NCBI GenBank assembly: GCA_905479195.1
Contig: CAJQLO010000001.1
Span: forward strand, 368,694-432,693
Direction of reading: 5' to 3'
Source: an uncultured Gammaproteobacteria bacterium
GTDB taxonomy: Bacteria; Pseudomonadota; Gammaproteobacteria; GCA-002705445; GCA-002716945
Length of the DNA: 64,000 bases
In this document: positions 7,006 through 27,803 of the stretch, one piece after another
How the letters are laid out: every line of letters begins with the position of its first letter
Position numbering within the stretch: the first letter of the stretch is position 1
Translations under genes and position numbers: made by a program
The notes under the pieces: model-generated
Databases searched by the model: none
Seen by the model: only the letters and a program-made list of their open reading frames with translations
What the model was told of the DNA's origin: nothing

Positions 7006-7898
7006 TTCATGACTTTCCTTAAATGGAAATGATATTGCCCTAATTTACCACCATAATTTCCTGCAGATATGGCAACTATATCTTTTTTTATTTTCATTTT
7101 AGAAATACTTTGTATCGAAGTTTTTATTGCCTCATTGATATCATCAAATGTCAGTCCATTGATAACTATTTCCATCACACAATTTACATTAGCTGGTAGA
7201 GTACTCTTTGTAATACTCTTTAGTGTTGGACAAAAAGCGTCATTAGTAGATGCTATTAAAGCCTTGTATTTTGAACCAACTTTTGATCCAGACCTCACAA
7301 CCCCGCCAGGAAAAGGAGTTATAATATTTGGCTGATTTTTGATTGAATTTATTGCTGTCTCACAGGCAGACAAGCATGATTTTCTATTAGTACTCAATAC
7401 TAAAAAATTACCACCACCTATTGCTGGTACACGTGCAGTTGATTCTTCACAAAGAAATTCTCCATCCATGACTGGTATACGCCAAAATCTTCTGTCTTGT
7501 ATTTTTTTTGATATTTGATGGCCATCACCAAAGTATCTTAAGTTTTTACCTAAAGGAATTACATCTTCTCCGATCATCCCAGAAAATATAGCGGTTGTTG
7601 GGCAAGTGAGAATACACTGACCAACCCTGACCTCTAATTGCTTTTCTAGCTGACTTCTAGACATTGAAAATAGTAAGATTGAATAGCCTGGCCTGTTATC
7701 AGGTGTTTCTGACGATTTTAATTGTTTTTCGATGCCAGCTTCTATGCCGCATGCAATAACTGATGTAGCAAATCCAGTAAAAGAGTCACAGGCATGTTTT
7801 GCCCATTTTAAATTATCTGCTGTTACGATTATACGACTGGCTTTCATATTAAAAGCTTCGGCAAACGTATTATCTATTTTTATACCATTATAAATCAT
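7002..7898 (-). CDS. fhcD: formylmethanofuran:tetrahydromethanopterin formyltransferase (Ftr/FhcD)
   Basis: N-terminus MIYNGIKIDNTFAEAFNMKASRIIVTA matches the Ftr N-terminus (xINGVEIEDTFAEAFxMxGTRVLITA). Length 298 aa. Embedded in the fhc operon. Confidence 0.85.
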   Translation of the reverse strand: MIYNGIKIDNTFAEAFNMKASRIIVTADNLKWAKHACDSFTGFATSVIACGIEAGIEKQLKSSETPDNRPGYSILLFSMSRSQLEKQLEVRVGQCILTCPTTAIFSGMIGEDVIPLGKNLRYFGDGHQISKKIQDRRFWRIPVMDGEFLCEESTARVPAIGGGNFLVLSTNRKSCLSACETAINSIKNQPNIITPFPGGVVRSGSKVGSKYKALIASTNDAFCPTLKSITKSTLPANVNCVMEIVINGLTFDDINEAIKTSIQSISKMKIKKDIVAISAGNYGGKLGQYHFHLRKVMK

Positions 7899-9553
7899 TG
7901 CTTTCTTTTATATTTGCAATCATTAACATAAACAGGGCTGCCTACCAGGCTATTCATTTCATCATCGCTTAATATATAGTTATCTAATTTCATTGTATGA
8001 TATTTTTCAAAAAACTTACCTAAATCTTTTTCAATTGATTTATCATAATCTGGCTTAACAGTATGGGTTTTGCCCCAAACATATTCTTTTATTTTTCCAT
8101 TTTCTACAACTATTTTTCCATCTTTAATAACTAGAGATGGATGAGCAAACATCTCTTCTATATCTTTTTTATTTTTATCATAAACGGTTATGTCTGCATC
8201 AGATCCCTCAGATAGATTACCTTTCTCTTTTAACCCTAAAATTTTTGCGGGCGCTGATCTTGTCATGATGGAAATTTCGTTTAATGTATATTCTCTCTTA
8301 AGGGTGTGAAGAATAGTATGATTAAGAATTTCTTTTGGTAGTTGATTTAAAATATCATTACGAAAAGTTTTATCCATTAATAATTTAATCAAATGAGGAT
8401 ACGAGGTAAATGGTGCCCCATTAGGATGATCTGTAGTTAAAAAAACTTTCCAAGGATCTTCGGCTAATAAAAATATTTCTAAACCTATAGCCCATTGAAG
8501 AGCATTTACAAAACTTTTATCTTTATATTTAAAAGGAACTACGCCGCACCCTGCGTCACATTCTATGTCCATACACATCCATTTATTTGGATGAGCATGA
8601 TTATGGTTTCTATATTGAGACATACTATCACCAGACATAGTTACAGTTTGTCCAAACATTATTTGTCCTACATCACAAGTTAGATTCTCTATCTTATTTA
8701 AGTAGTTTGAAATTTCTACTGCTGCTGAAGAAAAACCCTTATCTCCATTATTGCCATAACTTTGAAATTGTATATGAGTTAAGTGAATTGGTAATCCATT
8801 CGCAGCTTTTATAGTTTCTATTGTCGATAGAAAATTTCCAGGAATACCTAAGTTACTGCAATGTACGTGTAATGGGTGAGGAACTCCCAAATCATATATT
8901 GCTCTTGTGAGCTTCTCCACTATTTCTCTTGGTGTTATACCATAGTATTTAGATTTCTCATCAACATTTAAGGCTCTTTGATTAAACTTAAATGCATTAA
9001 TGCCACCAGGATTAACAACTTTTATTCCCAAGGATTGTGTTGCACTTAAAATAAAAGCAACATAATCATTTATTGTTGATTGACTAGATTTCTTCCTTAG
9101 CAAATCTAAAAAGTAATCATCATTTCCTAGTAAAGCGTAACCGCCTTTATCAATAAATGGAATATCTGACATCTCTGCATGAGCTTGCCTTGCATTTATA
9201 GGTAGTAGAGCTGGTTCAAAACAAGTTGTATAACCCATTTCTATATACTTTAATCCAGTTTTAAGAGTAGATGGGGCAATAATAGCCGAAGAATCATATC
9301 CGGGTTCTTTTTCGTTATGAAATTCTTCCAGCATTAATCTTGCAATGTTAACCTTTCCTCCACCAATATGAGTATGAAGATCAATAGCTCCTGGCATTAT
9401 TATTTTATCTGAGCAATTTATGATTTTATCAACCTTAGACCTAACATTTTTCTTATCAATAATTTTTCCATCTTGAATAAAAATATCTTTTTTTACATTA
9501 GATATTTTGTTATGAGGGTCGTATACATTTCCAGATTTTAATTGTGTAATCAA
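7895..9553 (-). CDS. fhcA: formylmethanofuran dehydrogenase subunit A homologue (amidohydrolase superfamily; FhcA)
   Basis: 552 aa with an amidohydrolase metal-binding signature (PGAIDLHTHIGGG). Position between fhcB and fhcD. Confidence 0.8.
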   Translation of the reverse strand: MITQLKSGNVYDPHNKISNVKKDIFIQDGKIIDKKNVRSKVDKIINCSDKIIMPGAIDLHTHIGGGKVNIARLMLEEFHNEKEPGYDSSAIIAPSTLKTGLKYIEMGYTTCFEPALLPINARQAHAEMSDIPFIDKGGYALLGNDDYFLDLLRKKSSQSTINDYVAFILSATQSLGIKVVNPGGINAFKFNQRALNVDEKSKYYGITPREIVEKLTRAIYDLGVPHPLHVHCSNLGIPGNFLSTIETIKAANGLPIHLTHIQFQSYGNNGDKGFSSAAVEISNYLNKIENLTCDVGQIMFGQTVTMSGDSMSQYRNHNHAHPNKWMCMDIECDAGCGVVPFKYKDKSFVNALQWAIGLEIFLLAEDPWKVFLTTDHPNGAPFTSYPHLIKLLMDKTFRNDILNQLPKEILNHTILHTLKREYTLNEISIMTRSAPAKILGLKEKGNLSEGSDADITVYDKNKKDIEEMFAHPSLVIKDGKIVVENGKIKEYVWGKTHTVKPDYDKSIEKDLGKFFEKYHTMKLDNYILSDDEMNSLVGSPVYVNDCKYKRKQ

Positions 9554-9562
9554 GATTTCTTC

Positions 9563-10813
9563 CTATGCTAAGTTATCTAATATATTTTGCGTAGACGGTA
9601 ATTTAATATCTCTAATTTTTTTTAATGCGACAGAGACCACTTTATCAGTTCTAAACATTATACCTTCATAGTCAATTCCAGGTATACCTACAGGTATAAA
9701 AATATCAGGTGTCGAAGTAAAAGTAGTATTTGGATGACCTAAAACTATATTGGTAATATCGCTATTAATCTTTAATTTCCCAGAATTAATAGTTGAAACA
9801 TGAATTACCACATCCACATTTTTTTCATCTATTAATTTTTGGCTATTGAATGCATTACGGTCATGTTTAAAAGTCCCGTCCATATGTTTTATGCTAGATG
9901 GAAATCCAGTCATCCATGTTAATGCTTGCGAAGAAGTTTCGTCAGCGAGAATTCCTGATATTGGCATACATGCCGCTCTAGATGATACGTTAAGATCAAC
10001 AATATACTTACAAATAGCAGCAATTATTTTTTTTGGGTTAAGAGTTTTGATGAAATCTGAAGCAGTCCATGTTGCGACTATATATTTGGATTTATTAAGA
10101 ATATTTTTAATCTTAATAAGCTCGCTTTTTTTCAGTCCTTTTAATAACTTTAAGTCATCAGTAGCAAGTAATTTTAAAAAATCACCAACTAGATTTAAGT
10201 CTAGCTTGATGTTTGTGATATTACATTTTCCTTTCCCTTTAATATTTTTAACAATCTTTGCGGAAAAATTACCAATCAATATAATCTCTTTTTTGCTTGT
10301 AGGGAATAAGCTATTTTTGGGAGTTAATACTTTATCGATTAATCTTGGTGTTTTAGTCAAAACTTCATTACCAAATATAATAATGGCATCAGCCCGATTT
10401 TTAGTTTCAGTCAATGAGGTAGCCATATACCCAGTTCTTTGAACAACCCCAATATTTTGATATAAAAATTTAGAATTAACATGATCAACTATACAGTTTC
10501 GTTGTGATGCAAAACTTAATATTGATCTTAGTCCGGCTAATTCTACCCCATGATTTAAAATTAATGTTTCATTATGCCCTTTAATAAGATTTGAAATTTT
10601 TTTTAATGCTTCTGACAGCTTAACTACTTTTTTACCTACCATAGGCATGACTATACTTTTTGTATTTAGGTTATAAGATTCAATTTTTTTAGCACAAACA
10701 GTATTTTTTTGGTCAACCTTATATTGGTCATTTGTCGTTGTTACACTTATATCATCACAATGCATAGAGCAGAAAGGGCATGTTAAGTTTTTAATATTAT
10801 TTTGGCTAGTCAT
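9563..10813 (-). CDS. fhcB: formylmethanofuran dehydrogenase subunit B homologue (FhcB)
   Basis: The N-terminal LTCPFCSMHCDD...C motif aligns with the FwdB VVCPFCGTLCDD Fe-S motif, and a TKNRADAIIIFG block matches FwdB VKNRADVVVYWG. 416 aa. Confidence 0.8.
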   Translation of the reverse strand: MTSQNNIKNLTCPFCSMHCDDISVTTTNDQYKVDQKNTVCAKKIESYNLNTKSIVMPMVGKKVVKLSEALKKISNLIKGHNETLILNHGVELAGLRSILSFASQRNCIVDHVNSKFLYQNIGVVQRTGYMATSLTETKNRADAIIIFGNEVLTKTPRLIDKVLTPKNSLFPTSKKEIILIGNFSAKIVKNIKGKGKCNITNIKLDLNLVGDFLKLLATDDLKLLKGLKKSELIKIKNILNKSKYIVATWTASDFIKTLNPKKIIAAICKYIVDLNVSSRAACMPISGILADETSSQALTWMTGFPSSIKHMDGTFKHDRNAFNSQKLIDEKNVDVVIHVSTINSGKLKINSDITNIVLGHPNTTFTSTPDIFIPVGIPGIDYEGIMFRTDKVVSVALKKIRDIKLPSTQNILDNLA

Positions 10814-10896
10814 ATGGATATATTCTACATTATAACCATGTCACTTTGTACATAAAAGGTATAAAATATGGACGTGAATATACTATATCTATCACT

Positions 10897-11850
10897 ATGA
10901 ATAAGACTGTAAAAGAATTAAGTATCACTAGTCCATCCAGGTTACATCTTGGATTTTATGGTTTTGATGATAGCTATGGATATAAGTATGGGAGCATGGG
11001 ACTTGCAATTAATGCATATAAAACCTCTTTATCCATAAAAAAGTCAAAAATTTTTTCAAGCAATCTGCCAAAAAAGTTTACAACTCCAATTTTAAAATAT
11101 TTGAAGCTAAAAAAAGTTAGTAGTAATTTTGAAATTAACTTATTAAGTCAGCCGCCTAGCCATATAGGCTTAGGGTCTGGTTCACAACTATCATTATGTT
11201 TAGGAAAATCAATATTAATGCACCTTGGTATCAAGGCAAGTATCAGTGATATTGCTCGCATTTATGATAGAGGGGAAAGATCAGGCACAGGTATAAGAAT
11301 ATTTGAGAGAGGAGGTTTTGTTGTCGATGCTTGTAAAAAAGCAAACATGTTACCCGAGACAATGTTTAACTCTAAATTTCCTAGTAAATGGAAAATCATA
11401 CTTATTAATGATAATCAGCTAAAGGGAGCTTCTGGTGAGAAAGAAGTTAAATTTTTTAATAAGAATATTAAATTATCAAGACAGTATAAGGCCGAATTAT
11501 CACATATTGCCCTCAGAGGAATATTACCTTCAGTAATTTATAAGGATTTTGATAATTTTTCAAAAAATATTTCAGAATTTCAAAGGATCACATCTTTATT
11601 CTATAAGGATAAGCAGAAAGGTATTTTTTTAAGCCCTGATATCTCTAACATCATGGAATATATAGGAAATTATGATAATTTAGGGATGGGACAGAGCTCA
11701 TGGGGGCCAATGTCTTATATATTCGTTGAGTCTAGTTTGCATGCTAAAGAGCTTATAAGTATTATCCAAAATAAATTTAATGTGTATAATAACCTAACAT
11801 TTAAAATTGCAAGCTCATGGAATTCGGGCTATAAAATTAGTTACAAATAA
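10897..11850 (+). CDS. mptG: GHMP-kinase-fold protein, probable beta-ribofuranosylaminobenzene 5'-phosphate synthase (MptG-like; H4MPT biosynthesis)
   Basis: Start taken at MNKTVKEL (the ORF track extends to 10846). There is a GHMP-like Gly-rich loop (HIGLGSGSQLSL). The position is divergent from fhc, as for orf4/mptG in methylotroph H4MPT clusters. Confidence 0.55.
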   Translation: MNKTVKELSITSPSRLHLGFYGFDDSYGYKYGSMGLAINAYKTSLSIKKSKIFSSNLPKKFTTPILKYLKLKKVSSNFEINLLSQPPSHIGLGSGSQLSLCLGKSILMHLGIKASISDIARIYDRGERSGTGIRIFERGGFVVDACKKANMLPETMFNSKFPSKWKIILINDNQLKGASGEKEVKFFNKNIKLSRQYKAELSHIALRGILPSVIYKDFDNFSKNISEFQRITSLFYKDKQKGIFLSPDISNIMEYIGNYDNLGMGQSSWGPMSYIFVESSLHAKELISIIQNKFNVYNNLTFKIASSWNSGYKISYK

Positions 11851-11871: not shown

Positions 11872-12762
11872 ATGGAAAAACCTTTTTTATTACATATGAT
11901 AACACCTGAAAAGAACATCAGCCCTTTTGATGCGAATATGGCTTTTGACGCAGGTTGGGACTCTGTAATCCCATATACCAATATAGGAATGGATGAAATG
12001 CAAGGAATCGTTCAGGACACAATCTTTTCAAGATCCCCGTCTGCATTAAAGAGAACTGGAATTTTTATTGGTGGCAGAGATACACATATGGCGATGGATA
12101 TGATTGAAGAAGCAAAAAAGCATATGGTCCCACCATTTGAAGTACCTGTTTTTGCTGATCCTAGTGGAGCATTTACAACTGCAGCAGGAATGGTTGCCAT
12201 AACTGAAAAAGCTCTTAAAGACAAATTCTCTGAAAAATTTACAGGTAAGAAAATAGTAATCTTAGGTGGCACAGGACCTGTAGGTGTTGCCTCAGCTGTT
12301 ATCAGTGCTAAAGCAGGAAATAGTGTGTTATTAGTAGGAAGGAGTTTAGATAAAGCAGAGAGCATAGCAAAGATATGCAATGAGAAATACGGCTCAAAAT
12401 CTGTTACAGGAGCAGTTGACTCTGAGAAGAAATCATTTTTAATAGATGCTGATATTGTTTTTAATACTGGAGCAGCAGGCATTCAGTTGATGGATGACGA
12501 ATTAATCAAGAACGCAGTAAACTTAAAGATATGTGCAGATGTGAATGCTGTTCCTCCGGCAGGAATATCAGGAATAGATGCGATGGATAATGTTGTTCCA
12601 ATGAAGAACTCTAGCTCTGGCTGTTTTGGAATAGGAGCTTTAGCGATAGGAAACATTAAATATAAGTCTCAACATGATTGTCTAAAGCTAATGTATAGTT
12701 GCGATAAGCCGGTATACTTACATTTTGAACAAGCGTTTGAGTTTGCACAAAAAAATGTCTGA
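11872..12762 (+). CDS. mtdB: NAD(P)-dependent methylene-tetrahydromethanopterin dehydrogenase (MtdA/MtdB family)
   Basis: 296 aa. A Rossmann GxGxxG motif (ILGGTGPVGVASA) sits mid-protein and the N-terminal domain is typical of MtdA/B. Context is mptG upstream and mch downstream. Confidence 0.65.
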   Translation: MEKPFLLHMITPEKNISPFDANMAFDAGWDSVIPYTNIGMDEMQGIVQDTIFSRSPSALKRTGIFIGGRDTHMAMDMIEEAKKHMVPPFEVPVFADPSGAFTTAAGMVAITEKALKDKFSEKFTGKKIVILGGTGPVGVASAVISAKAGNSVLLVGRSLDKAESIAKICNEKYGSKSVTGAVDSEKKSFLIDADIVFNTGAAGIQLMDDELIKNAVNLKICADVNAVPPAGISGIDAMDNVVPMKNSSSGCFGIGALAIGNIKYKSQHDCLKLMYSCDKPVYLHFEQAFEFAQKNV

Positions 12763-13826
12763 TGATTAATGCTGTTGTTGTTATAAATTCAGACACAACA
12801 TATTTAGAAGAAAAATTTACATCCCTGGGGATCAAGGTTTTTGCTTTTGACCAATATTGTCATAATAACCTAGATAAAATTCAAGATATTACATATCTAG
12901 AATCATTTATAAACAATATCCTTATTGATTATCAGAATGTTGGCCTATTATATGGGTCTGGACTAGAAGACAAGCCTGAAATTTATGATTGCTTAAGACG
13001 AAAGTTAAGTATATTGGGTAATGATCCAAGAATTATTTCAAAGTGTAATGATTTAAGGCTGCTAACTAACACATTAGATGAGTGCAATCTCAAGTTTCCA
13101 GAATATGTAAACAATACTATAGGAATAAAAAAAAGATACCTATCAAAACCATTCAATAGTTCTGGAGGATATAATATAAACTTCAGTGAAAAATATAAAA
13201 AAAATCACTACCTTCAGGAGTATCTTGAAGGAGAAACATATTCAATATCATTCTTCAAGCATAAAGACAATTTTATTTTCTTAGGATTTAATAAGTTACT
13301 ACATCTTCGAAATTTTGACCCACATCCTTTTATACATGCAGGAGCATTAACGACTAATAAATTTTTAGAATCTACTAATATAATTAATTCATTTAAAAAA
13401 TTATCAGAAAAACTTTCAATGAATGGTTATAATAGTATTGATTTTAAAATACTAAATGAAGAAGTTTTTGTACTTGATATCAATCCGAGAATTACATCTA
13501 CATTCAAAATTTATAACGATACTTATAATAATGATTTATTGCATCTTATAATAAACCCTGGCCTTGATAAAAAACTAGAAAGTCATAATAATAATAAGTA
13601 TGCTTTCGTCCATATGTTTGTAAAAGAAGAGTATAAGTTTAAGAATTTTTTTATGGATGATCCTGAGTTTGTAAATCTCCCTAATGAAGGACAACATGTT
13701 GGGAAAAATCAGCCTTTATTATCAATATATCTAAATTCATTTTCAAATTTAGATTTAATGACAAGATTAAAAGAAAAAATTTCAATTACAACAAATCTTT
13801 ATAACTGCTATGATATAGATATCTAA
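12762..13826 (+). CDS. ATP-grasp family ligase (H4MPT/methylofuran biosynthesis, orf5/orf7/orf17-like)
   Basis: 354 aa with ATP-grasp architecture. Start overlaps the mtdB stop (ATGA). One of three ATP-grasp genes in the island. Confidence 0.5.
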   Translation: MINAVVVINSDTTYLEEKFTSLGIKVFAFDQYCHNNLDKIQDITYLESFINNILIDYQNVGLLYGSGLEDKPEIYDCLRRKLSILGNDPRIISKCNDLRLLTNTLDECNLKFPEYVNNTIGIKKRYLSKPFNSSGGYNINFSEKYKKNHYLQEYLEGETYSISFFKHKDNFIFLGFNKLLHLRNFDPHPFIHAGALTTNKFLESTNIINSFKKLSEKLSMNGYNSIDFKILNEEVFVLDINPRITSTFKIYNDTYNNDLLHLIINPGLDKKLESHNNNKYAFVHMFVKEEYKFKNFFMDDPEFVNLPNEGQHVGKNQPLLSIYLNSFSNLDLMTRLKEKISITTNLYNCYDIDI

Positions 13827-13829
13827 ATT

Positions 13830-14798
13830 ATGACTGAAAAAATAAGTATAAATAAGGTTGTTAAGCCACTAGTTGAAAAGCTCATTGAGACTGCAGATCA
13901 ATTAAATATCGGTGTCCATACTTCAGAAGGTGGAGCCAAGATTATTGATGCCGGCATTAATTATACTGGTTGTTTGGAGTCTGGACGGTTGATTACAGAA
14001 ATCTGTATGGGTGGGTTAGGTAGAGTATCCTTATCAATGACCTCTAATACCCCAAATTGGCCATTATCTATTCATGTGCATAGTACTAATCCAGTATTAA
14101 GTTGCTTGGCTAGTCAATATGCTGGCTGGAATCTTTCTTTTGTTAAGGAAGAAGATAACTTTAATGCACTTGGATCAGGTCCATGTAGAGCACTGGCACT
14201 AAAAGAAGATTTATTTAAAGATTTGGATTATTCAGATAAATTCTATTCAACAGTAGTTGTGTTAGAAGTTGATAAAAACCCACCACAAGAAATCATAGAT
14301 AAGATAACAAATGATTGTGGAATTAGTGAAAAGAATTTAACTGTTATTTTAACACCTACGAGGTCATTATCTGGCTCTGTGCAGGTTGTCGGAAGGGTTT
14401 TAGAAGTTGGTATGCATAAATTACATGAAATTGGATTCCCTTTAAACAAGGTCGTTGATGGATTTGGTTCAGCCCCAGTGCCACCACCCGCACCTGATTT
14501 TTTGATAGGAATGGGAAGAACTAATGATGCAATATTGTATGGAGGAATGGTCCATCTTTTTGTAGACGTGGATGATGATGAAGCATATGAGCTTGCCAAG
14601 AGACTACCTAGCTCAACATCGTCTGATTATGGAAAGCCATTTGCAGATGTGTTCAAAGAATACAAGTATGATTTTTATAAGATCGACAAGCTACTTTTTA
14701 GTCCGGCAAAAGTTATAGTCACAACAATTAAAACAGGAAAAACTTTTACAGAAGGATCTATAGATTTAGAATTAGTTGATAAATCATTTAATAAATGA
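13830..14798 (+). CDS. mch: methenyltetrahydromethanopterin cyclohydrolase
   Basis: 322 aa, the size and sequence character of Mch. Located in the H4MPT cluster between ATP-grasp genes. Confidence 0.8.
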   Translation: MTEKISINKVVKPLVEKLIETADQLNIGVHTSEGGAKIIDAGINYTGCLESGRLITEICMGGLGRVSLSMTSNTPNWPLSIHVHSTNPVLSCLASQYAGWNLSFVKEEDNFNALGSGPCRALALKEDLFKDLDYSDKFYSTVVVLEVDKNPPQEIIDKITNDCGISEKNLTVILTPTRSLSGSVQVVGRVLEVGMHKLHEIGFPLNKVVDGFGSAPVPPPAPDFLIGMGRTNDAILYGGMVHLFVDVDDDEAYELAKRLPSSTSSDYGKPFADVFKEYKYDFYKIDKLLFSPAKVIVTTIKTGKTFTEGSIDLELVDKSFNK

Positions 14799-15706
14799 GA
14801 AAAGTTCTTATCCTAACTGATCAAAAAGGTTGGCACTATAAGCAGCTAAAAAAATCTTTTGAAAATAGAGATATTTCTGTTGAGTCATCTAATTTAGATG
14901 ATCTCTCGATAGCTATTCAAGGTAAAAAAAATCAAATTATAAAAAATAATGGTGAGTTACTAACTAATATCACGGATGTCTTTGTTCGTCATATTCCTGG
15001 AGGAACCTTAGAAGAGGTGATTATCAATCTTAATATACTTAAGGTTTTTGAATCGCATAATATTAATGTAATGAATACATCTACAAATATTGAAACAACA
15101 GTTGATAAATCACTTACGTCTATAAAGCTAATGGAATCTGGTATTTTGACTCCAGACACCTGGGTAGTGAGAGGTAGAAGTAATTGTAAAAAAATTGTGA
15201 AAGATCTCCTCCCTAAACATGCTTTAATATATAAACCTTTATTTGGTTCTCAGGGTGATAATATAGTAAAAATTACAGCAGTTTCGGATTTTGATAAAAT
15301 TGTAAATGAAAGCAATATTTTCTATATACAGGAATTTCTTGAAACAAAACCTTCTCATGATTATAGAGTCTTGATAGCAAAAAATAAAAATAAAAAAATG
15401 GTCTATACTATGATGAGATATAGTGATTCTTATATCAATAATATATCAAAAGGAGCTATGTGTGTTTCGGTAAAGGCTGACAAAGATATAATTGAGACTG
15501 CGCTTAAGGCAGCATCAGTTATCAATATTCCATTCTGTGGCGTTGATATTATCAAACATAATAACAAGAATTATGTGATTGAATTAAACAGTATACCTGC
15601 ATGGAAAGGTATGCAGACCACACTTGAAAATAATATATCCGATGAAATCATAAATATATTTATTGGAAATACGATAAACAAATCATTCTTATCTGTTCTT
15701 AAGTAA
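14795..15706 (+). CDS. RimK-like ATP-grasp ligase (MptN-like tetrahydromethanopterin:glutamate ligase candidate)
   Basis: 303 aa RimK-family pattern. ATGA overlap with mch. Confidence 0.6.
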   Translation: MRKVLILTDQKGWHYKQLKKSFENRDISVESSNLDDLSIAIQGKKNQIIKNNGELLTNITDVFVRHIPGGTLEEVIINLNILKVFESHNINVMNTSTNIETTVDKSLTSIKLMESGILTPDTWVVRGRSNCKKIVKDLLPKHALIYKPLFGSQGDNIVKITAVSDFDKIVNESNIFYIQEFLETKPSHDYRVLIAKNKNKKMVYTMMRYSDSYINNISKGAMCVSVKADKDIIETALKAASVINIPFCGVDIIKHNNKNYVIELNSIPAWKGMQTTLENNISDEIINIFIGNTINKSFLSVLK

Positions 15707-17165: not shown

Positions 17166-17864
17166 TTAACCAGCTCTATTTTTAGAGCTGGTTTTTTCTT
17201 TTTGGATCATATATTTTGTAATCTTATTCTGATGAATCATTGTTGAAACTAAAACTCCACTCGCACCAAAATGCTTTGCTCTTTTGATATCAAATATAGA
17301 TTTAATTCCACCAGCAATATAATAATCTTGGTTATTATTCCTAATAAATCTTCTAGCAAGTTTATAATTAATATTATTTTTTGAACCAACTTGAAGCAAG
17401 TCCATGAGTATAATTTTTGATGGGGATGCTTTTTGTTGTCTATATATAGGTTTCTCTCCTATATATTTTCCCATAAAATCAAATGAGCAGACACAATTAT
17501 TAAATTTATTTGATGAAAATTCATAGCCTTTTGATTTTTCACTGCAAAAAACAGGATAATAATTTCTATATTTCTTTTTTAATTTTATTTCTTTCAAACC
17601 AGAGTCAATCCAGAATTTAATTTTTGGAAATGAAGATAAGATATCATCATATATCTTCGGGTCTATGATGTTATGCATAATTGCATCTAAATCAGCAATG
17701 TATAATATCTTAGGAGAATACCTTTTTACAATTTGATCAATTATATCTCTTGGATCTGTACTATTGTATAATTTGTGGTTGATAGACTGATAATTATCTC
17801 TATCACCTTTAATTGCTCTAACCACTTGGTTATTAAGAATGTCTATAACAGGGATTATGTCCAT
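17166..17864 (-). CDS. HisA/HisF-like (beta/alpha)8-barrel protein of the H4MPT biosynthesis cluster
   Basis: N-terminus MDIIPVIDILNNQVVRAIKGD resembles HisA MIIPALDLIDGxVVRLxQGD. 232 aa. Confidence 0.5.
   Translation of the reverse strand: MDIIPVIDILNNQVVRAIKGDRDNYQSINHKLYNSTDPRDIIDQIVKRYSPKILYIADLDAIMHNIIDPKIYDDILSSFPKIKFWIDSGLKEIKLKKKYRNYYPVFCSEKSKGYEFSSNKFNNCVCSFDFMGKYIGEKPIYRQQKASPSKIILMDLLQVGSKNNINYKLARRFIRNNNQDYYIAGGIKSIFDIKRAKHFGASGVLVSTMIHQNKITKYMIQKEKTSSKNRAG
17169..17198 (+). terminator. rho-independent terminator after fae (perfect 9-bp stem ACCAGCTCT / AGAGCTGGT, then a T-run); it overlaps the last codons of the convergent minus-strand gene
   Basis: Inverted repeat plus TTTTTTCTTTTT, read directly from the sequence. 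Confidence 0.7.
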
Positions 17865-17867
17865 AGT

Positions 17868-18818
17868 ATGAAAAAGATATTAATATATGAATATATTACA
17901 GGAGGAGGGCTTTTAAATGAAGATTTAACTTCTGATCTTATGAGTGAAGCTAATATGATAACTTCCTCGGTTTACGATAGTTGTCGGAAATCAAAGTATG
18001 TCAAGCATAACTATTTTAGAGATTTTCGCCTTTCATCTATAAATGAGAAAGAATCTATATTCTTAAGAGATAATAGCAAAATTTATGATATAGATTTTTT
18101 AAGAAAATATGATTATGTATTACCTATATTGCCAGAAATAGATATGAGACTGTATCTTTATGTAGAATACTTAGAAAAGAATGGAGTTGATGCTGTAATA
18201 TCTAATTCACAAACGATAAAAACATGTTCTGATAAATTAAAGTTTTATAAATTTTGCCAGAAGAACTCTTTGCCTACTATTGATACATATCAGAAATATA
18301 GTAGTAATTTACATAATAAGTTACTTTTAATTAAAGATAGGTATGGAGCAGGATGCTCTCATATAGAAATTACTAAAAATAAAAAAAACCTTGAACTAAT
18401 TAAGGATGATAAAATAATCCAACCTTATATAACTGGTGATGATTATAGTATCTCAATTTATTTTACTAAAAATAATTTTTATATACTAACTATCAATAAA
18501 CAAATATTGGAGTATAAAAATAATAGAGCTAGGTTAAGTAGTATTATTGTTAATGTGGAACACCCTGCATATTTAAAAATAATAAATCTTATATCAAAAA
18601 TTAAAGATTCACTTCCAGGACTATATGGTTTTGTTGGTGTTGATATTATAACTAAAGGTAATGATATATTTATTATTGAGATTAACCCTAGATTGACAAC
18701 ATCATTTATTGGAATTTATGACACAATAGGGATAAATATTATTGATTTAATAATATCCAGAAAACCATTAAAAAATATTATAAGTGGAAAGAAGTATCAT
18801 ATAAATAATCATGGATAA
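17868..18818 (+). CDS. ATP-grasp family ligase (third copy in the island)
   Basis: Start taken at MKKILIYEYITGGG, since the ORF-track start at 17775 would overlap the divergent gene by 90 nt. Glycine-rich loop and ATP-grasp architecture. Confidence 0.5.
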   Translation: MKKILIYEYITGGGLLNEDLTSDLMSEANMITSSVYDSCRKSKYVKHNYFRDFRLSSINEKESIFLRDNSKIYDIDFLRKYDYVLPILPEIDMRLYLYVEYLEKNGVDAVISNSQTIKTCSDKLKFYKFCQKNSLPTIDTYQKYSSNLHNKLLLIKDRYGAGCSHIEITKNKKNLELIKDDKIIQPYITGDDYSISIYFTKNNFYILTINKQILEYKNNRARLSSIIVNVEHPAYLKIINLISKIKDSLPGLYGFVGVDIITKGNDIFIIEINPRLTTSFIGIYDTIGINIIDLIISRKPLKNIISGKKYHINNHG

Positions 18819-19860
18819 AAAAAAATTATATATTGGTTGGGACATAGGTGGTGCTCATACAAAATACACTATATCGTCAGACACTAGAGATACAGTAGAA
18901 TCTAGAATTATACTTTGTGAACTATGGAAATCTTTATCACGGTTAGAAGGTATAGTTAAAAGCATAGATATAAAATATAGAAAAAAATTTCATATAATAA
19001 ATCTAATTAGTATGTCAGCTGAAATGTGCGATATCTTTTCTTCCAGAAGAGAAGGTGTTAAAGCGATACTTTCTTTATTTGAGAATAAAGGTTTTATTAA
19101 CCATATATATTCTAAAGATAATGGGATATTAAAGTTTCAGGGTTTTAAAAAATATTCATCTCTAGCGTCAACAAATTGGATGGCTATTCCTGATTATTTG
19201 AAAAATATGGATAAAAATATAATAGCTATTGATATTGGATCTACTACTACTGATATAGTTCTTATCAAAAACCATATATGTATAAACAGAAGGCATGATG
19301 ATTATTCAGGCCTTAATACTAAAGAGTTACTTTATACTGGCGTTTTAAGAACTCCCATATACTCAGTAATAAAAACCCTTAATTTAAATAAGAGGGTATA
19401 CAATGTGATTCCTGAAAATTTTGCTACGATGTCTGATGTTTATCGATTACTATCAATTATCCAAAAAAAATCTGATTATACTAATACAGCTGATGGAAGA
19501 TTAAAATCAAAAAAAGATACTTTAAATAGGATTTCAAGAGTTTTTGGATTTGATTATTGTGTGGATAAAAACAAGACTATTCATATGTTGTCTAGAAAAA
19601 TCATGTCAGCGCATCTAGATCAAATAAGTTATACTATAAAAAGTCATATTAAAGATAACTTCTCTACCGTGAAAGATCTCAAAGTTATTGGTATGGGTGT
19701 TGGTAGAATGCTTATTAATATGATAAGTAAAAAAAATAATTGGAAATATATGTCTTTAGATAAGTATATTAATATTAAATATAATAAGAGATTGTGTGAG
19801 CCATCTGATGCAGCACCATCTTTTTTGCTTTCTTTGTTATTAAAAAAACATTATGAATAA
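18811..19860 (+). CDS. hydantoinase/oxoprolinase-like ASKHA-fold protein (H4MPT-cluster associated)
   Basis: N-terminal LYIGWDIGGAHTK and internal IAIDIGSTTTDIV phosphate-binding motifs typical of hydantoinase_A/ASKHA. Assignment is tentative. Confidence 0.45.
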   Translation: MDKKKLYIGWDIGGAHTKYTISSDTRDTVESRIILCELWKSLSRLEGIVKSIDIKYRKKFHIINLISMSAEMCDIFSSRREGVKAILSLFENKGFINHIYSKDNGILKFQGFKKYSSLASTNWMAIPDYLKNMDKNIIAIDIGSTTTDIVLIKNHICINRRHDDYSGLNTKELLYTGVLRTPIYSVIKTLNLNKRVYNVIPENFATMSDVYRLLSIIQKKSDYTNTADGRLKSKKDTLNRISRVFGFDYCVDKNKTIHMLSRKIMSAHLDQISYTIKSHIKDNFSTVKDLKVIGMGVGRMLINMISKKNNWKYMSLDKYINIKYNKRLCEPSDAAPSFLLSLLLKKHYE

Positions 19861-21214
19861 ACAACATAAAATTAGTTATGACTATTATGGTGATACTCGC
19901 GATATATTTGCAGTAATCAAAGATTCTGAGTGGTCAGTATTTTTATGTAGTAATCATGATAAGTTTCAAGATGAGAGATATGACATACTTAGTGCTAATC
20001 CAGTAGAAAAAATAATTTCTTATATAGATAAGACTACAGTAGAAAATAAAAATGGTATCCAGGAATATAAAGATGACCCAATAGATGTGGTAGGTATTGT
20101 CATGAAAAAGTACCCCTCCGATATTAGTGACTTGCCATTTACTGGTGGAGCGATTGGTTATTTATCATATGATTTAGGTAATCATTATGAAGGTATTGAA
20201 ATTAAAAAAAATGATCTTAATGTACCACTTATGGCATTTGGTATTTATGACTGGGCAGTTATTGTTGACCATCATAAGAAAAATACAACTTTAGTTTATA
20301 GAAATGAAGATTCCTTTATTGAAAATATAAAATTATGCCTTGAAAAAAAAATATTTGATAAGAATCAAGAAAAAAAATTCTTAATTAATTCAGCTTGTGA
20401 ATCGAACATTACCCATGATGAATATGAAAGTAAATTTAATAAAATACAATCATATATCCAGAGTGGAGATTGCTATCAAATTAACTTTTCACAAAGATTT
20501 TCTGCTCAGTATAGTGGGGACACTTGGGATATTTACAATAAGATAACACCTGCTTACTCATCACCTTACTCGGCATATATAAATATGCCTTTTATTAATA
20601 TAATGAGTTTTTCTCCAGAACGATTTCTCTCCTATGATGGAAATATTGTAGAGACCAAACCAATAAAAGGAACTCGTCCTGTTTCTGCTGATATACAGGT
20701 TAATAAACAGCTTATAGAGGAATTATCTACTTCATATAAGGAGAGAGCAGAAAACTTAATGATTGTCGATTTACTGAGAAATGATTTGGGAAAAAATTGT
20801 GAATTTGGTTCGGTAAAAGTTAAGGAGTTATTTAGTATCGAGACATTTGCAAACGTCCATCATCTTGTCAGTACTATTCAGGGTAAGATTGCCAGTAATA
20901 GTAATATTTACAAGCTTATTAAGGACTGTTTCCCTGGAGGTTCTATTACAGGTGCGCCAAAAATTAGGGCTATGCAGATTATAAGCGAGCTTGAGCCCGA
21001 CAATAGAAATATTTATTGTGGCTCTATAGGCTATATTAGCTTTAGCGGAACAACTGACTTAAATATTGCTATTAGAACTGTAATTGCCATGAAGGATAAA
21101 TTATATTTTTGGGGAGGAGGCGGGATAGTCTATGACTCTGAAATTGAATCAGAGTATAAGGAAACATTTGATAAAATCAAACCTCTATTAGATTTACTTA
21201 AAACTCCAACTTAA
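19853..21214 (+). CDS. pabB: chorismate-utilising enzyme, aminodeoxychorismate synthase component I-like (PabB-like; supplies the aminobenzoate moiety of H4MPT)
   Basis: 453 aa. The C-terminal chorismate-binding domain is conserved (SPERFL, G(T)RP, MIVDLLRNDLG, ETFANVHHLVSTIQG, FPGGSITGAPKIRAMQII.ELE). A pabB homologue is a known member of methylotroph H4MPT clusters. Confidence 0.75.
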   Translation: MNKQHKISYDYYGDTRDIFAVIKDSEWSVFLCSNHDKFQDERYDILSANPVEKIISYIDKTTVENKNGIQEYKDDPIDVVGIVMKKYPSDISDLPFTGGAIGYLSYDLGNHYEGIEIKKNDLNVPLMAFGIYDWAVIVDHHKKNTTLVYRNEDSFIENIKLCLEKKIFDKNQEKKFLINSACESNITHDEYESKFNKIQSYIQSGDCYQINFSQRFSAQYSGDTWDIYNKITPAYSSPYSAYINMPFINIMSFSPERFLSYDGNIVETKPIKGTRPVSADIQVNKQLIEELSTSYKERAENLMIVDLLRNDLGKNCEFGSVKVKELFSIETFANVHHLVSTIQGKIASNSNIYKLIKDCFPGGSITGAPKIRAMQIISELEPDNRNIYCGSIGYISFSGTTDLNIAIRTVIAMKDKLYFWGGGGIVYDSEIESEYKETFDKIKPLLDLLKTPT

Positions 21215-21881
21215 TTTTTTTTGAAACTTCTTTTGCTAGATTTATATTAAATTTATACCGTGCTTTCGATGAATCACATAATTGCCCTCTAAATCCTAAA
21301 AAATCAGGATTTAACTCTTTTAGCATTTGTATATGATCAAGTTTTAAAGATCCAGACAAGCCACAAATCATCCCATAAGATTTTACTATCTTTAAAAAAT
21401 CTTTTATCTCTTTCTGGCTCAATAGGTCTATTATTGATTTACTATTTTTATGACATGTATCAATCATTATGCCTTGATAACCCATACCGATAAGTTTTTC
21501 TACATTATTAAGATCGAAGTCTTGGTCAGCAAATATTACACAGATAGGTTTAGTATTTTTGAAATTAATTTGTTCAAGAATAATCCGATGTTCTGATAAA
21601 TATTTTTTATCAAACATTCCTATCTTTAAATAATTTATTTCTTTTTCTATAAGAATCTTTAAATTTTTTATATTACTATTATTATTTGGATTAATATCAT
21701 TACCCATAGTTACACTAAGAATATTATTGGGTAATAAAATTTTTACTTTAGAGATCAATTCAATGCCTACAAAACCTAATGCACCATCATTAATATTTTT
21801 TAAATCTAAAATATCAATATCAACTTTTGAAGCAATAGTTGCCTCATCAATATCTTTTACACTAGCAAGAAATCCTACCAT
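21198..21881 (-). CDS. mfnB: MfnB-like (5-formylfuran-3-yl)methyl phosphate synthase family TIM-barrel protein (furan moiety of methylofuran/methanofuran)
   Basis: N-terminus MVGFLASVKDIDEATIASKVDIDILDLKNINDGALGF matches the MJ1099/MfnB N-terminal pattern (LLVSPxDxEEAxEAxxGGADIIDVKNPKEGSLGA). 227 aa. Confidence 0.6.
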   Translation of the reverse strand: MVGFLASVKDIDEATIASKVDIDILDLKNINDGALGFVGIELISKVKILLPNNILSVTMGNDINPNNNSNIKNLKILIEKEINYLKIGMFDKKYLSEHRIILEQINFKNTKPICVIFADQDFDLNNVEKLIGMGYQGIMIDTCHKNSKSIIDLLSQKEIKDFLKIVKSYGMICGLSGSLKLDHIQMLKELNPDFLGFRGQLCDSSKARYKFNINLAKEVSKKIKLEF

Positions 21882-21882
21882 G

Positions 21883-22452
21883 TTATTTCATATTCTCTTT
21901 TTGGAATTCTTGGATCTTATCTTCTATCCATTTCCATGCTTGAGACTCTCTTGGCCCCGCGGTCTTTTTAATTCCTATCTTAAGATATTCTATTTCTTGT
22001 AAAATTTTTTCTATAGGTAGCATTCTCAGCCTGCTAACCAATACTGATGCCTCTATTACTGAAAACTGTGCCCTATTAAAACCCATAAATGGTTTATGAA
22101 TTACTTTTTTACTTATATCACATACTATATTAGGTCTTTTCTCATCATCTTTAAATTCTTTGGCTATTACATTATAATGAGTATTAGCTAATGTCAGCCT
22201 TGGGACCACACTCTTATCTTTAATATCTTCTAGCTCCCAATCTTTTTTATATTTTGTAACAATTCCTGCAAACACTCTTACATCATCAATAAAGTTTATG
22301 GTCGCTAGATTATTTTTAGTAATATTCTCTAATGTTTGAGATGGCCGAAAAGGTGAAATAATAACTCTATCGTCGATGAGTTGTATTCCCATAGGCGCTA
22401 TATGAACTATATTTTTTTCAGAGACGGTTGTGACTATAACTTCATGTATCAT
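21883..22452 (-). CDS. DUF447-like protein (possible MfnF-like methylofuran biosynthesis enzyme)
   Basis: 189 aa. The family is assigned from memory of DUF447/MJ0840-like proteins clustering with mfnB, and is weakly supported. Confidence 0.35.
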   Translation of the reverse strand: MIHEVIVTTVSEKNIVHIAPMGIQLIDDRVIISPFRPSQTLENITKNNLATINFIDDVRVFAGIVTKYKKDWELEDIKDKSVVPRLTLANTHYNVIAKEFKDDEKRPNIVCDISKKVIHKPFMGFNRAQFSVIEASVLVSRLRMLPIEKILQEIEYLKIGIKKTAGPRESQAWKWIEDKIQEFQKENMK

Positions 22453-23840
22453 TTTTTCTTTTTAAAAGTTGGACCTTGTTCTTTAAATTCAAGCTTATCA
22501 TCAATCTTTTCATCTACTAAGCAACCCCATTTCAATTCTTCATCTTGTTCATAAGTTTTTCCTAGTTGGTGTGCAATTTGAGCTCTAGCTAATTCCACCC
22601 CTAAATAAAAAGCATGACCAGTATCATCTCCAACGTCTATCTTTTCAAAGAAATCAAAAGGATCGATAGCAACTTGCAACCCTTTTTTATTAAACAAATT
22701 AACACCATCATCTGTATTCATTATTCTATAGCTAGAATCTTTAACTTGTTCAAACAATTCTTCAACTTCTTGCGCATTATATCTTATAGGATCTTCTTCA
22801 TGAGTTGTAAGTAGTCCTGAATTAATATGTTTTGGCGTGGTGTTTCCAAGACTTGCTGCTAGAATAATCCTTCGTGCTAAATCACTTTCTTTAATTACTG
22901 TTCTGCAATGTTTGCTAACTTCAGTAGTTAAAATATGATTAATTTTAAGTTCAGATATTATCCCCATCAGTATCATAGTCATTCCAGTTGTATCTGCATG
23001 AGTAAGCTCTGTTACATTACCAGTACCCATCATAATATGGATATCTGGATACCTTTTTCTTAATTCACTATACCTGGTAATTGATTGAGTAAAACCATAG
23101 TTTATTGGATCTAAAATAGGGTCTGCAATAAATATTCTTTTATTTTCAATACATCTATCAATGCAATCATATAGACTGACCATATCTCCATCCTTAGGTA
23201 TTAGGATAGGGTATGAATCTACTTCATCTAGGATATAAAAATTATCTGATTTTATACTCAAAAGATAGTCTGCTCCGGATTTTCCCCCAAGAATTAATTC
23301 TTTATCTAAATGAGAATCTATGCTGACATAAAAATCTTGACGTTTTAGCTCTTGTATAGTTTCAGATAAATGAGGAAATGGTTTATTAGGTAAACAGCCA
23401 ATATCAATTATATCTGCACCATTATCTCTATAATAATTAGCCATGCTGATAATTTCTTGTATTTTCATATTAGGAGCATCAGTTATTTCAGCAAATATAT
23501 GTACCTCGTACTTTGAGAGATCATATTTTAAAGGATTACCTCCAAACATAACTGGCAAGTCTTTTAATTCTTCTGGTCCGCGCTCAATTTTAATCTTAAG
23601 TTTTTTAGCCAACTCATCTATATCGCCTCTAACCTTCCCAGGCAATATAATCTTGCTGAAGTTATCCACATTTCCAATACGCCTATATATCATTTCTGTA
23701 GTAAGCAATGCAGCAACATTAATATTAAGATTCCTTATTTCATATGAAAAATCTTTCTCTTCTATGCAGTCTAAAATCTTCTTTAGATTTTTCTCAGCTA
23801 ATTTTCCCGTAATAAATAAAATATTCTTTTTCATACCCAT
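22449..23840 (-). CDS. dihydropteroate-synthase-like pterin-binding enzyme with C-terminal extension (MJ0107-like; H4MPT biosynthesis)
   Basis: 463 aa. The central region has a DHPS-like barrel pattern (DIIDIGC..., GTGNVTELTHADTTG). The size and extra C-terminal domain resemble the archaeal H4MPT-specific DHPS homologue. Confidence 0.6.
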   Translation of the reverse strand: MGMKKNILFITGKLAEKNLKKILDCIEEKDFSYEIRNLNINVAALLTTEMIYRRIGNVDNFSKIILPGKVRGDIDELAKKLKIKIERGPEELKDLPVMFGGNPLKYDLSKYEVHIFAEITDAPNMKIQEIISMANYYRDNGADIIDIGCLPNKPFPHLSETIQELKRQDFYVSIDSHLDKELILGGKSGADYLLSIKSDNFYILDEVDSYPILIPKDGDMVSLYDCIDRCIENKRIFIADPILDPINYGFTQSITRYSELRKRYPDIHIMMGTGNVTELTHADTTGMTMILMGIISELKINHILTTEVSKHCRTVIKESDLARRIILAASLGNTTPKHINSGLLTTHEEDPIRYNAQEVEELFEQVKDSSYRIMNTDDGVNLFNKKGLQVAIDPFDFFEKIDVGDDTGHAFYLGVELARAQIAHQLGKTYEQDEELKWGCLVDEKIDDKLEFKEQGPTFKKKK

Positions 23841-24361
23841 TTTTTTAGAGCTCGATTTAATTTCATAACATTGTCCACAACATCAACATTCTTAAATTTT
23901 TTTAATTTTTCATAATTTTCTAACTCTATATCACGTGGGTATAATGTCACAGACTTTTTTGGTGCTTGTGTTATTACCGTAGGCTCAGTATCACAGGCAA
24001 AGACTATTGAGTGTATTTTGCATTTACCAGCTTGTGCAAACATATTTGTCACCAAAGTATCTGATAATCCATAAGACATTTGTGCAATAGTATTAGATGT
24101 TGCAGGAGAAACTACAATTAGCTTATATACATTCTCATATAGTAAACTAACAGGAGCAGAGCTAGCTGTAATATCTTTAAAAACCTTAATTCCTTTTGAT
24201 TTAAAATCTTCAAGACTATAATTATACCATTTAAGAACTTCCTCGCCTGCTCCACTAAGAAATAAGTCTACATTTTTTAGAGTAAATATAATCTCTATTG
24301 ATTCTTTTAGATAATGACCAGAACCAGTAATACACCACGCTATTCTTTTTGTATTATCCAT
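23831..24361 (-). CDS. dmrA: AfpA/DmrA-like flavoprotein (dihydromethanopterin reductase candidate)
   Basis: 176 aa. The N-terminal IAWCITGSGH flavoprotein motif resembles the CoaC/AfpA family. Known partner in H4MPT clusters. Confidence 0.5.
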   Translation of the reverse strand: MDNTKRIAWCITGSGHYLKESIEIIFTLKNVDLFLSGAGEEVLKWYNYSLEDFKSKGIKVFKDITASSAPVSLLYENVYKLIVVSPATSNTIAQMSYGLSDTLVTNMFAQAGKCKIHSIVFACDTEPTVITQAPKKSVTLYPRDIELENYEKLKKFKNVDVVDNVMKLNRALKKWV

Positions 24362-24362
24362 A

Positions 24363-24965
24363 TTATTTTATGCTTTTATTTATTAGTGTTTTATATTCTA
24401 TCAAGTCTTCTTGGCTGTTTATATTAATAAATATATTTTTCTCATCTGAGAAATCTACTAATTCTAGGCTACATTGATTATACCATTTATCAATTTTTCT
24501 CTGACCAGTATCTATAAATGATTTTAAGTTATTCAATAGATCTTTTTTTATTAAGGAATATACGGGCTGTATCCTATCTCCATTATGAGCAGCTCTAACA
24601 TCAAAATGATTATTAATGTTAGTCATGCGCTCAAAGTATGTGTGACTAAGTAATGGACCATCACATGGTAGAGTTATTAGATATTTTGTTTTAGTATTAA
24701 ATAATGATGTATATATGCCTGACAAGGGTCCTTGATAATCCTTTAATATATCCTGCCAAGTTATTAGCCCCATTTTATTATATATATCAATATTTCTATT
24801 AGCATTAACATAAATTTCATTAGAGTATTCTTTGCAGATATCATACAAATGTTTGATAACATATTTTTTGTTTATCCGCATTAAACCTTTATCCTGGCCA
24901 TCCATTCTCTCGGATTTCCCGCCTGCTAATATTACTATTGTTATATCTTCTTTATTTATATTCAT
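24363..24965 (-). CDS. mobA: molybdenum cofactor guanylyltransferase
   Basis: N-terminal VILAGGKSERMDGQDKGL matches the MobA LAGGxSxRMG motif. 200 aa. First gene of a minus-strand operon. Confidence 0.75.
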   Translation of the reverse strand: MNINKEDITIVILAGGKSERMDGQDKGLMRINKKYVIKHLYDICKEYSNEIYVNANRNIDIYNKMGLITWQDILKDYQGPLSGIYTSLFNTKTKYLITLPCDGPLLSHTYFERMTNINNHFDVRAAHNGDRIQPVYSLIKKDLLNNLKSFIDTGQRKIDKWYNQCSLELVDFSDEKNIFININSQEDLIEYKTLINKSIK

Positions 24966-25021
24966 TTTATTAAAAGGTTATCATTAGATATTAAGTATCT
25001 TATATAATAGAATAACTCAGC

Positions 25022-27350: not shown

Positions 27351-27803
27351 ATGTTTAAAGGTATCCATAACATAAACTTGGATGGAAAAGGCAGATTAAC
27401 TATACCAACCAAGTATAGAAATACTATTAGTGATCAGTCGAATGGCAATATGGTTGTTACGATTGATTCAGAAGAAAAATGCTTACTCCTTTATCCGGCA
27501 AATATTTTCTCTAATATTGAAACTAAAATCAATGACTTGCCAAGCTTTACTAAAAATACTAGAAGAATACAACGCTTACTAATAGGTCATGCAGAGGATT
27601 TAGAGTTAGATTCAAGCGGAAGAATATTATTACCTAAGCCTCTTAGACTCGTTGCTGAGATGTCTAAAAAAGTCACTTTAATAGGACAAGGTCAAAAATT
27701 TGAAATTTGGAGCGATGATATTTGGAATAATAAAGTCAATAAATGGAGATCTGAAGAAACAGATGAATCAGAGGAATCTGTTTTATCAGATATTAGAATT
27801 TAA
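27351..27803 (+). CDS. mraZ: transcriptional regulator MraZ
   Basis: MFKGIHNINLDGKGRLTIPTKYR... canonical MraZ with duplicated DUF-type halves. 150 aa. First gene of the dcw cluster. Confidence 0.9.
   Translation: MFKGIHNINLDGKGRLTIPTKYRNTISDQSNGNMVVTIDSEEKCLLLYPANIFSNIETKINDLPSFTKNTRRIQRLLIGHAEDLELDSSGRILLPKPLRLVAEMSKKVTLIGQGQKFEIWSDDIWNNKVNKWRSEETDESEESVLSDIRI

Follow-up and report, generated by a model that had tools for sequence, protein, structure and literature searches.

The window analyzed here is a stretch of 64,000 nucleotides (nt) from an uncultured marine gammaproteobacterium of low guanine-plus-cytosine (GC) content; its own composition is AT-rich, with ~30% GC. Within it, the segment 21198–23840 is filled by three minus-strand open reading frames (ORFs), which encode a dihydropteroate synthase (DHPS)-like protein, a member of the DUF447 family, and a homolog of MfnB, an enzyme of the methylofuran (furan) branch. 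They are read as the three distal genes of a minus-strand operon of five, mobA-afpA-DHPS-like(orf20)-DUF447(orf19)-mfnB(orf22), belonging to the canonical “archaeal-like” tetrahydromethanopterin (H4MPT)/methylofuran formaldehyde-oxidation island of methylotrophic Proteobacteria. Taken jointly with the rest of the explanation given below, this reading is probable. The genes of the operon and its convergent neighbor are as follows (aa, amino acids).

24363..24965, minus strand: mobA, 200 aa, first gene of the operon; TIGR02665 174 bits against a cutoff of 151.85; 1-nt gap to afpA
23831..24361, minus strand: afpA-family flavoprotein gene, 176 aa, pterin branch; PF02441 75 bits; TIGR02699 (AfpA) 106.5 bits and TIGR02700 94.9 bits, both below cutoff
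22449..23840, minus strand: DHPS-like gene (orf20), 463 aa, pterin branch; DUF6513 plus a pterin-binding domain; PF20123 94.3 bits, PF14251 27.3 bits, TIGR00284 177 bits
21883..22452, minus strand: DUF447 gene (orf19 by gene order), 189 aa; DUF447_N 76.6 bits, DUF447_C 68 bits
21198..21881, minus strand: mfnB (orf22), 227 aa, last gene of the operon; PF04476 (4HFCP_synth) 150.6 bits
19853..21214, plus strand: pabB, aminodeoxychorismate synthase I; TIGR00553 373.5 bits against a cutoff of 328.4

From mobA to mfnB, consecutive genes are separated by a 1-nt gap, a 10-nt overlap, a 4-nt ATGA start/stop overlap, and a 1-nt gap; because the five genes are so tightly packed, they are taken to form a single operon. 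Its 3′ end is convergent with pabB such that the ends of mfnB and pabB overlap by 17 nt. The gene order is identical in related marine metagenome-assembled genomes (MAGs), whose DUF447 proteins share 84–98% amino-acid identity with that of the window, and this conserved synteny indicates that the ORFs are real genes rather than chance occurrences. A consensus scan of 20900–25200 yielded 20 promoter-like sites, compared with 27 expected, and no terminators, which is uninformative in AT-rich DNA. The gene at the head of the operon in this marine clade, mobA, encodes a molybdenum cofactor guanylyltransferase; several other gammaproteobacterial loci have a mobA on the opposite strand, downstream of mfnB.

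The 227-aa protein had been proposed to be MfnB-like, an assignment that is borne out by its match to PF04476 (E 7.8e-44, against a bit-score cutoff of 22.4; residues 5–208 against profile positions 2–216 of 228). The sole match in the Protein Data Bank (PDB) is MJ1099/MfnB of Methanocaldococcus jannaschii (4rc1/4u9p; phmmer E 2.6e-18, 69.9 bits), with which the protein aligns over its full length (residues 5–219 against 11–237). The catalytic Asp/Lys positions are kept: D25/K27, K85, and D151/K155 of MJ1099, numbered after subtraction of the 7-residue tag offset of the PDB sequence, align with D26/K28 (DILDLK), K86 (YLKIG), and D141/K145 (MIDTCHK). Roles for Asp25, Lys27 (the Schiff base), Lys85, and Asp151 of MJ1099 are said to have been assigned by Wang et al. 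in 2015. K155 is also a catalytic residue, and R217 is likely a residue of the phosphate-binding loop (PMC11365854); the alignment of this R217 loop is imperfect.

These alignments place the 227-aa protein among the MfnB-family aldolases, and all of its catalytic Asp/Lys residues are preserved. Its similarity to MJ1099 is distant, and the NCBIfam equivalog cutoffs are unmet (93.3 against 304 bits for NF002575, 74.8 against 341 for NF002573, and 150.9 against 297 for NF002576, the best of the three), which counts against a straightforward assignment; the protein is therefore regarded as a divergent member of the family. As it combines family membership with an intact catalytic set, it is predicted from sequence that it most likely converts two glyceraldehyde-3-phosphate into 4-(hydroxymethyl)-2-furancarboxaldehyde phosphate (4-HFC-P), the furan-phosphate precursor of methylofuran. 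Unrelated TIM-barrel aldolases were considered as alternative relatives, but the protein does not group with them: matches to tagatose-bisphosphate aldolase reach only ~20 bits over ~50 residues, compared with 150 for PF04476.

The 189-aa protein harbors both Pfam domains of the DUF447 family in order, DUF447_N (PF04289; cutoff 24 bits) followed by DUF447_C (PF20766; cutoff 24.8 bits), in agreement with its earlier recognition as a DUF447 member. Its AlphaFold model (predicted local distance difference test score, pLDDT, 97.5) is closest to the solved DUF447 structures 3b5m from Rhodopirellula baltica (template modeling score, TM, 0.86) and 2nr4 from Methanosarcina mazei (MM1853; TM 0.81), as well as 2iml from Archaeoglobus fulgidus and 2ptf (MTH_863). 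These have the same two-domain fold at 21–28% sequence identity, and three of the four entries (2iml, 2nr4, and 2ptf) were crystallized with flavin mononucleotide (FMN). Outside the family, the next-best folds are split-barrel flavin reductases (SMOB, PheA2, NTA-MoB, and CtcQ; TM ~0.5). The two-component flavin reductases of PF01613 (SMOB, PheA2, NTA-MoB) have in common with the DUF447 N-terminal domain the split-barrel FMN-binding core; sequence identity to them is 10–18%, and DUF447 adds a conserved helical C-terminal domain with a GFNRA...VIEA motif. On the strength of the model, the protein is a DUF447 split barrel that is followed by a helical C-terminal domain and is predicted to bind FMN. 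No functional study was found in literature searches for DUF447 or orf19; one paper on DUF447 in Pyrodictiaceae does no more than speculate on cannulae.

The original prediction went further and associated DUF447 with MfnF, that is, with the coupling of furan pyrophosphate to glutamyl-tyramine or glutamyl-tyrosine. The one observation in favor of this assignment is the adjacency to mfnB. MfnF (MJ0840, Orf9 in methylotrophs) is hydantoinase-like (NF040623/TIGR03123), and the window encodes a homolog elsewhere:

18811..19860, plus strand: orf9, MfnF homolog, hydantoinase-like, 349 aa; TIGR03123 225.1 bits, NF040623 (MfnF) 138.3 bits, PF01968

This product aligns with NF040623 over its full length (8–346 against 3–324 of 324; cutoff 520 bits) and scores below the TIGR03123 cutoff of 244.1 bits. 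Hemmann et al. (PMC8141765) identify Orf22, Orf21, and Orf9 as homologs of MfnB, MfnE, and MfnF, so that Orf9 is equated with MfnF, and DUF447 goes unmentioned in their study. The DUF447 protein returned no NCBIfam match of any kind, MfnF included, showed no similarity to the MfnF homolog of the window by BLASTP (E 0.14), and has a fold, the predicted FMN-binding split barrel, that differs from that of the MfnF family. The DUF447 protein is not MfnF; the coupling role retains a probability close to nil, and of the similarity anticipated for 21883–22452, the DUF447 part stands and the MfnF part falls.

An indication of what DUF447 does instead comes from its genomic context. A profile search of genome contigs with an 11-sequence DUF447 alignment provided the 80 nearest relatives, all from Proteobacteria, and in all 80 the gene lies within H4MPT/methylofuran clusters. 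The DHPS-like gene is the upstream neighbor in 75 of these loci, and where the DHPS-like-DUF447-mfnB trio is broken, DUF447 is kept with AfpA/DHPS-like in four loci (L055, L067, L078, and L079). One of them, the alphaproteobacterial L055, encodes MfnB, AA_kinase, AfpA, DHPS-like, and DUF447 and reproduces the conserved island orf19-orf20-afpA-orf21-orf22 described previously (PMC3615186). Because the gene orders match, DUF447 is equated with orf19 and the DHPS-like gene with orf20.

A second sample covers Archaea, where 80 loci from a metagenome scan with an archaeal DUF447 alignment and four obtained by look-up give 84, with neighbors called by using the window proteins as phmmer queries. CitG-like genes are present in 45 of these loci, AfpA/DmrX-like genes in 12, and Mch in three; no locus has MfnB, MfnF, or MfnD within 8 kb, and MptG and DHPS-like were likewise found in none. 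In 44 loci, the CitG-like gene directly precedes DUF447, the two usually overlapping by 4 nt, and is itself preceded in 17 loci by an MJ0144-type Dus-like/methanogenesis-marker-9 protein. Immediately downstream, 11 loci encode a 240-aa DmrX (TIGR02700 dihydromethanopterin reductase, 406.8 bits against a cutoff of 251). The string Dus-like (MJ0144-type, methanogenesis-marker-9)-CitG-like-DUF447-DmrX recurs in L121–L168 (e.g., L162 5312–8107 and L146 302–1730) and looks like an unannotated methanopterin-biosynthesis operon.

Gene fusions add a third line of evidence. Among 852 DUF447 representatives, four clusters (P0211, P0223, P0234, and P0247; 400–517 aa, mutually <50% identical) have DUF447 fused at the N-terminal side to β-ribofuranosylaminobenzene phosphate (RFAP) synthase, and the synthase part of two of them scores 131 and 162 bits with TIGR00144, above the cutoff of 113.5. 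Three such fusions occur on separate contigs (L004 5767–7320, L170 1379–2932, and L171 86–1624), and one of the contigs with this fusion additionally has separate MfnF-like, MfnB, and DHPS-like genes. A further candidate fusion, P0147, was set aside as it looks like a frameshift artifact.

The recurrent partners of DUF447 across the two domains are methanopterin-related, namely, the AfpA/DmrX flavoprotein, the DHPS-like protein, and RFAP synthase; the CitG-like protein recurs as well, and its triphosphoribosyl-transfer chemistry would fit the α-ribosyl phosphate of methanopterin. The link to mfnB is confined to Proteobacteria. The known MfnA–F route needs no redox step, and in H4MPT synthesis, as established by White and co-workers, no enzyme is known to be assigned to the step that reduces the ribofuranosyl-aminobenzene adduct to its ribityl counterpart. 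For these reasons, the balance tips toward a role of DUF447 in the pterin (dephospho-H4MPT) branch.

Several observations weigh against this placement. In Proteobacteria, mfnB directly follows DUF447 in 76 of the 79 loci with both genes, and five loci (L020, L027, L049, L070, and L082) have the DUF447-mfnB pair without the upstream DHPS-like gene. DUF447 is thus as tightly linked to mfnB as to DHPS-like, so the proteobacterial context does not discriminate between the two branches. One fusion cluster, from a single 1955-bp contig, joins DUF447 to MfnB. The RFAP-synthase fusions are not branch-specific proof either, because fusions can cross the furan and pterin branches: in L055 (5916–7238), MfnB is extended at its C terminus by a dihydroneopterin aldolase (FolB) domain (211 bits for PF04476 and 71 bits for PF02152) and is followed by an Orf21-type AA_kinase. 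The archaeal loci are redundant, and at 70% DUF447 identity they collapse to 20 clusters, with CitG upstream in eight of the 18 that have an upstream gene and DmrX downstream in three of the 20. Methanobacteriales loci show only DUF2124-DUF447, with no cofactor gene nearby. Finally, L089 (2547–5736, 62% GC), whose proteins bear the amino-acid signature of haloarchaea (D+E 16.9%, K 1.4%), carries CofD, Dus-like, CitG-like, and DUF447, and haloarchaea are reported to be without H4MPT-specific enzymes (PMC8305020).

The proteobacterial linkage could alternatively reflect some other flavin-dependent role in the furan branch beside MfnB, for instance as an enzyme resembling pyridoxamine-phosphate oxidase (PNPOx) that acts on 4-HFC-P or on its aminomethyl counterpart, 5-(aminomethyl)-3-furanmethanol phosphate (F1-P). 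The aldehyde 4-HFC-P and the aminomethyl phosphate F1-P are analogous to pyridoxal and pyridoxamine phosphate, and the DUF447 protein has a weak PNPOx_N match (E 0.0023). The tight DUF447-mfnB pairing and the MfnB fusion described above would follow directly, and the methylofuran pathway has unexplained genes (Orf17) and an unidentified MfnC (PMC8141765). Such a role is nevertheless unlikely, as the 84 archaeal loci have CitG-like and DmrX in place of MfnB, MfnF, and MfnD, RFAP synthase is fused to DUF447 in four clusters, and the known MfnA–F chemistry is without a redox step. The occurrence of DUF447 in the probable haloarchaeon L089 argues in the same direction, haloarchaea not being known to make methanofuran.

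The same contig is the starting point for a broader or different cofactor pathway, in which DUF447 would act with the CitG-like protein and be co-located with one-carbon (C1) genes only in methylotrophs. The isolated contexts fit this proposal: besides L089 and the DUF2124-DUF447 pairs of Methanobacteriales, L172 has the order GATase-DUF447-SpoU with no C1 genes nearby. It is however at odds with the presence of all 80 proteobacterial loci inside H4MPT/methylofuran clusters and with the DmrX adjacency and RFAP-synthase fusions, which are specific to methanopterin chemistry, and is considered improbable, well behind a furan-branch role.

Within the favored pterin branch, the reaction itself is a matter of pure inference; the preferred candidate, held at clearly less than an even chance, is a ring opening in which DUF447 would act as an FMN-dependent reductase on the pterin-RFAP adduct and turn its C-ribofuranosyl ring into the ribityl chain. 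The DHPS-like enzyme would supply that adduct in the preceding step, and a CitG-like ribosylation would come next. A ring-opening role would explain the fusion to RFAP synthase, the adjacency to DHPS-like in bacteria, and that to CitG-like and DmrX in archaea. The nearest folds beyond the family, the two-component flavin reductases SMOB, PheA2, NTA-MoB, and CtcQ, suggest another function, that of an NAD(P)H:flavin reductase supplying the dihydromethanopterin reductase, of AfpA/DmrB type or, in archaea, of DmrX type, with reduced FMN in the last step of the pterin branch. The AfpA/DmrX-family gene is the one neighbor common to bacteria and archaea. However, DmrX takes up electrons through a ferredoxin-like Fe-S domain of its own (multiple 4Fe-4S family matches), and the flavin-supply function leaves the RFAP-synthase fusions and the tight DHPS-like/CitG-like coupling unexplained; it is deemed rather unlikely, somewhat less so than the broader pathway and more so than a furan-branch role.

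Of the remaining furan-branch genes, those for the MfnF homolog and an MfnD-like ligase are located 2–4 kb away, on the opposite strand from the operon. One of the ATP-grasp proteins had been suggested to act as an MfnD-like ligase, and a gene matching that suggestion is found upstream of orf9:

17868..18818, plus strand: orf1-type ATP-grasp, MfnD-like, 316 aa; NF040722 (MfnD_Meth) is the best NCBIfam match; ATP-grasp_3 120 bits

The NF040722 score is 107.3 bits against a cutoff of 400. With the GTG at 17775 as its start, the mechanically called ORF would share 90 nt with orf17; the true start is probably ATG 17868, since the ortholog in relatives has 316 aa. That the MfnB, MfnF, and MfnD homologs are all under the NCBIfam equivalog cutoffs counts against the furan-branch assignments as a set.

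OrfY and Orf5 correspond to MyfA and MyfB, and Orf17 is needed for methylofuran in M. extorquens (PMC8141765). The window thus encodes MfnB, MfnD-like, MfnF-like, MyfA, MyfB, and Orf17, and within it MfnE, MfnA, and MfnC are missing. For MfnE, phmmer and a hidden Markov model (HMM) built from eight Orf21-type kinases of related loci gave no match in the six-frame window at E ≤ 10, and the HMM gave none in the ±10-kb loci of close marine relatives. No pyridoxal phosphate-dependent decarboxylase or aminotransferase (MfnA, MfnC) is present among the annotated ORFs of the window. The proposal that the island encodes the biosynthesis of both cofactors of the formyltransferase/hydrolase (Fhc) complex is therefore upheld in that H4MPT- and methylofuran-branch genes are both present, but not as regards a complete furan pathway within the window.

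The rest of the C1 island extends from fhc to orf17 and comprises the following genes.

6208..10813, minus strand: fhcC, fhcD, fhcA, and fhcB, the formyltransferase/hydrolase complex using both cofactors; TIGR03122, TIGR03119, and TIGR03121 above cutoff, TIGR03129 193.7 bits, below its cutoff of 327.8
10846..11850, plus strand: mptG, β-RFAP synthase; TIGR00144 125.5 bits against a cutoff of 113.5
11872–12762: mtdB
12762..13826, plus strand: orfY/MyfA-type ATP-grasp; partial MfnD_Meth match of 56 bits, ATP-grasp_3 72.8 bits
13830–14798: mch
14795..15706, plus strand: orf5/MyfB-type RimK/MptN-like glutamate ligase (PMC8141765); NF040720 172 bits, PF08443
15712..16590, plus strand: orf7, CitG-like protein; PF01874 176.7 bits
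16630–17148: fae
17166..17864, minus strand: orf17, HisA/HisF-like protein; TIGR00734 80 bits, PF00977

Just upstream of fhc, the window encodes a methanethiol oxidase, MtoX (2170–3540; 693 bits, above cutoff), adjoined by a 666-aa MauG/MbnH-like di-heme protein with a long N-terminal extension (3675–5675). A ResA/TlpA-like thioredoxin (5682–6203) is located near MtoX and fhc, and a 500-aa ORF at 576–2078 has no Pfam or NCBIfam match.

The remainder of the window consists of housekeeping genes, including the division and cell wall (dcw) cluster, secA, argJ, coaE, zapD, nadE, bamD, rluD, acrAB-like genes, aspS, nadA, ruvC, and others. In the dcw cluster, ftsZ (29212–30381) lies between ftsL (28928–29197) and ftsI (30407–32092), in the same order as in related MAGs (L001 2086–3240), and ftsA (41967–43217) is directly followed by lpxC, whereas ftsZ usually comes after ftsA. 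No murC was seen between murG and murB in this cluster. A 65-aa J-domain protein with the HPD motif (KYHPDKNP) is encoded at 27803–28000 between mraZ and rsmH with abutting start and stop codons, and is kept in relatives as PF00226 DnaJ (L001 4452–4649). A 277-aa ORF resembling S-adenosylmethionine methyltransferases (25956–26789; weak PF08242, no NCBIfam match) shares 44 nt with the 3′ end of dusA; relatives carry a 272-aa version with no Pfam on record.

The region is a typical example of a gene island that has been well described, and as such it is already known; both cofactor branches are textbook content of the methylotroph “archaeal-like” cluster (PMC8141765, PMC3615186), and the nearest copies are already available in public MAGs under the annotation “DUF447 family protein.” Its value lies in showing that the standard module for formaldehyde oxidation via H4MPT and methylofuran is carried by an uncultured marine gammaproteobacterium of low GC content and in correcting the label DUF447 = MfnF, which could otherwise propagate. 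In addition, a family that accompanies pterin-branch genes in both Bacteria and Archaea is a nominee for a still-unassigned step of methanopterin biosynthesis, a pathway relevant to both methanogenesis and methylotrophy.

In comparison with the H4MPT/methylofuran clusters of Methylorubrum extorquens, Methylobacillus flagellatus, and Methylosinus trichosporium, some differences in composition and order are apparent. Unlike in the known clusters, orf21 (MfnE, AA_kinase) was not found in the window or in the loci of close marine relatives, mobA stands at the head of the operon, the order is afpA, DHPS-like, DUF447, mfnB, and the host is an uncultured marine organism with ~30% GC. The gene families are nonetheless the same and are arranged in largely the same sub-clusters, which in those methylotrophs include orf19-orf20-afpA-orf21-orf22, mch-orf5-orf7-fae-orf17, orf9, orfY, orf1, fhcCDAB, mptG, and pabB. 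As in the known methylotroph cluster, the role of the genes is to provide the Fhc complex with its two cofactors (PMC8141765, PMC3615186).

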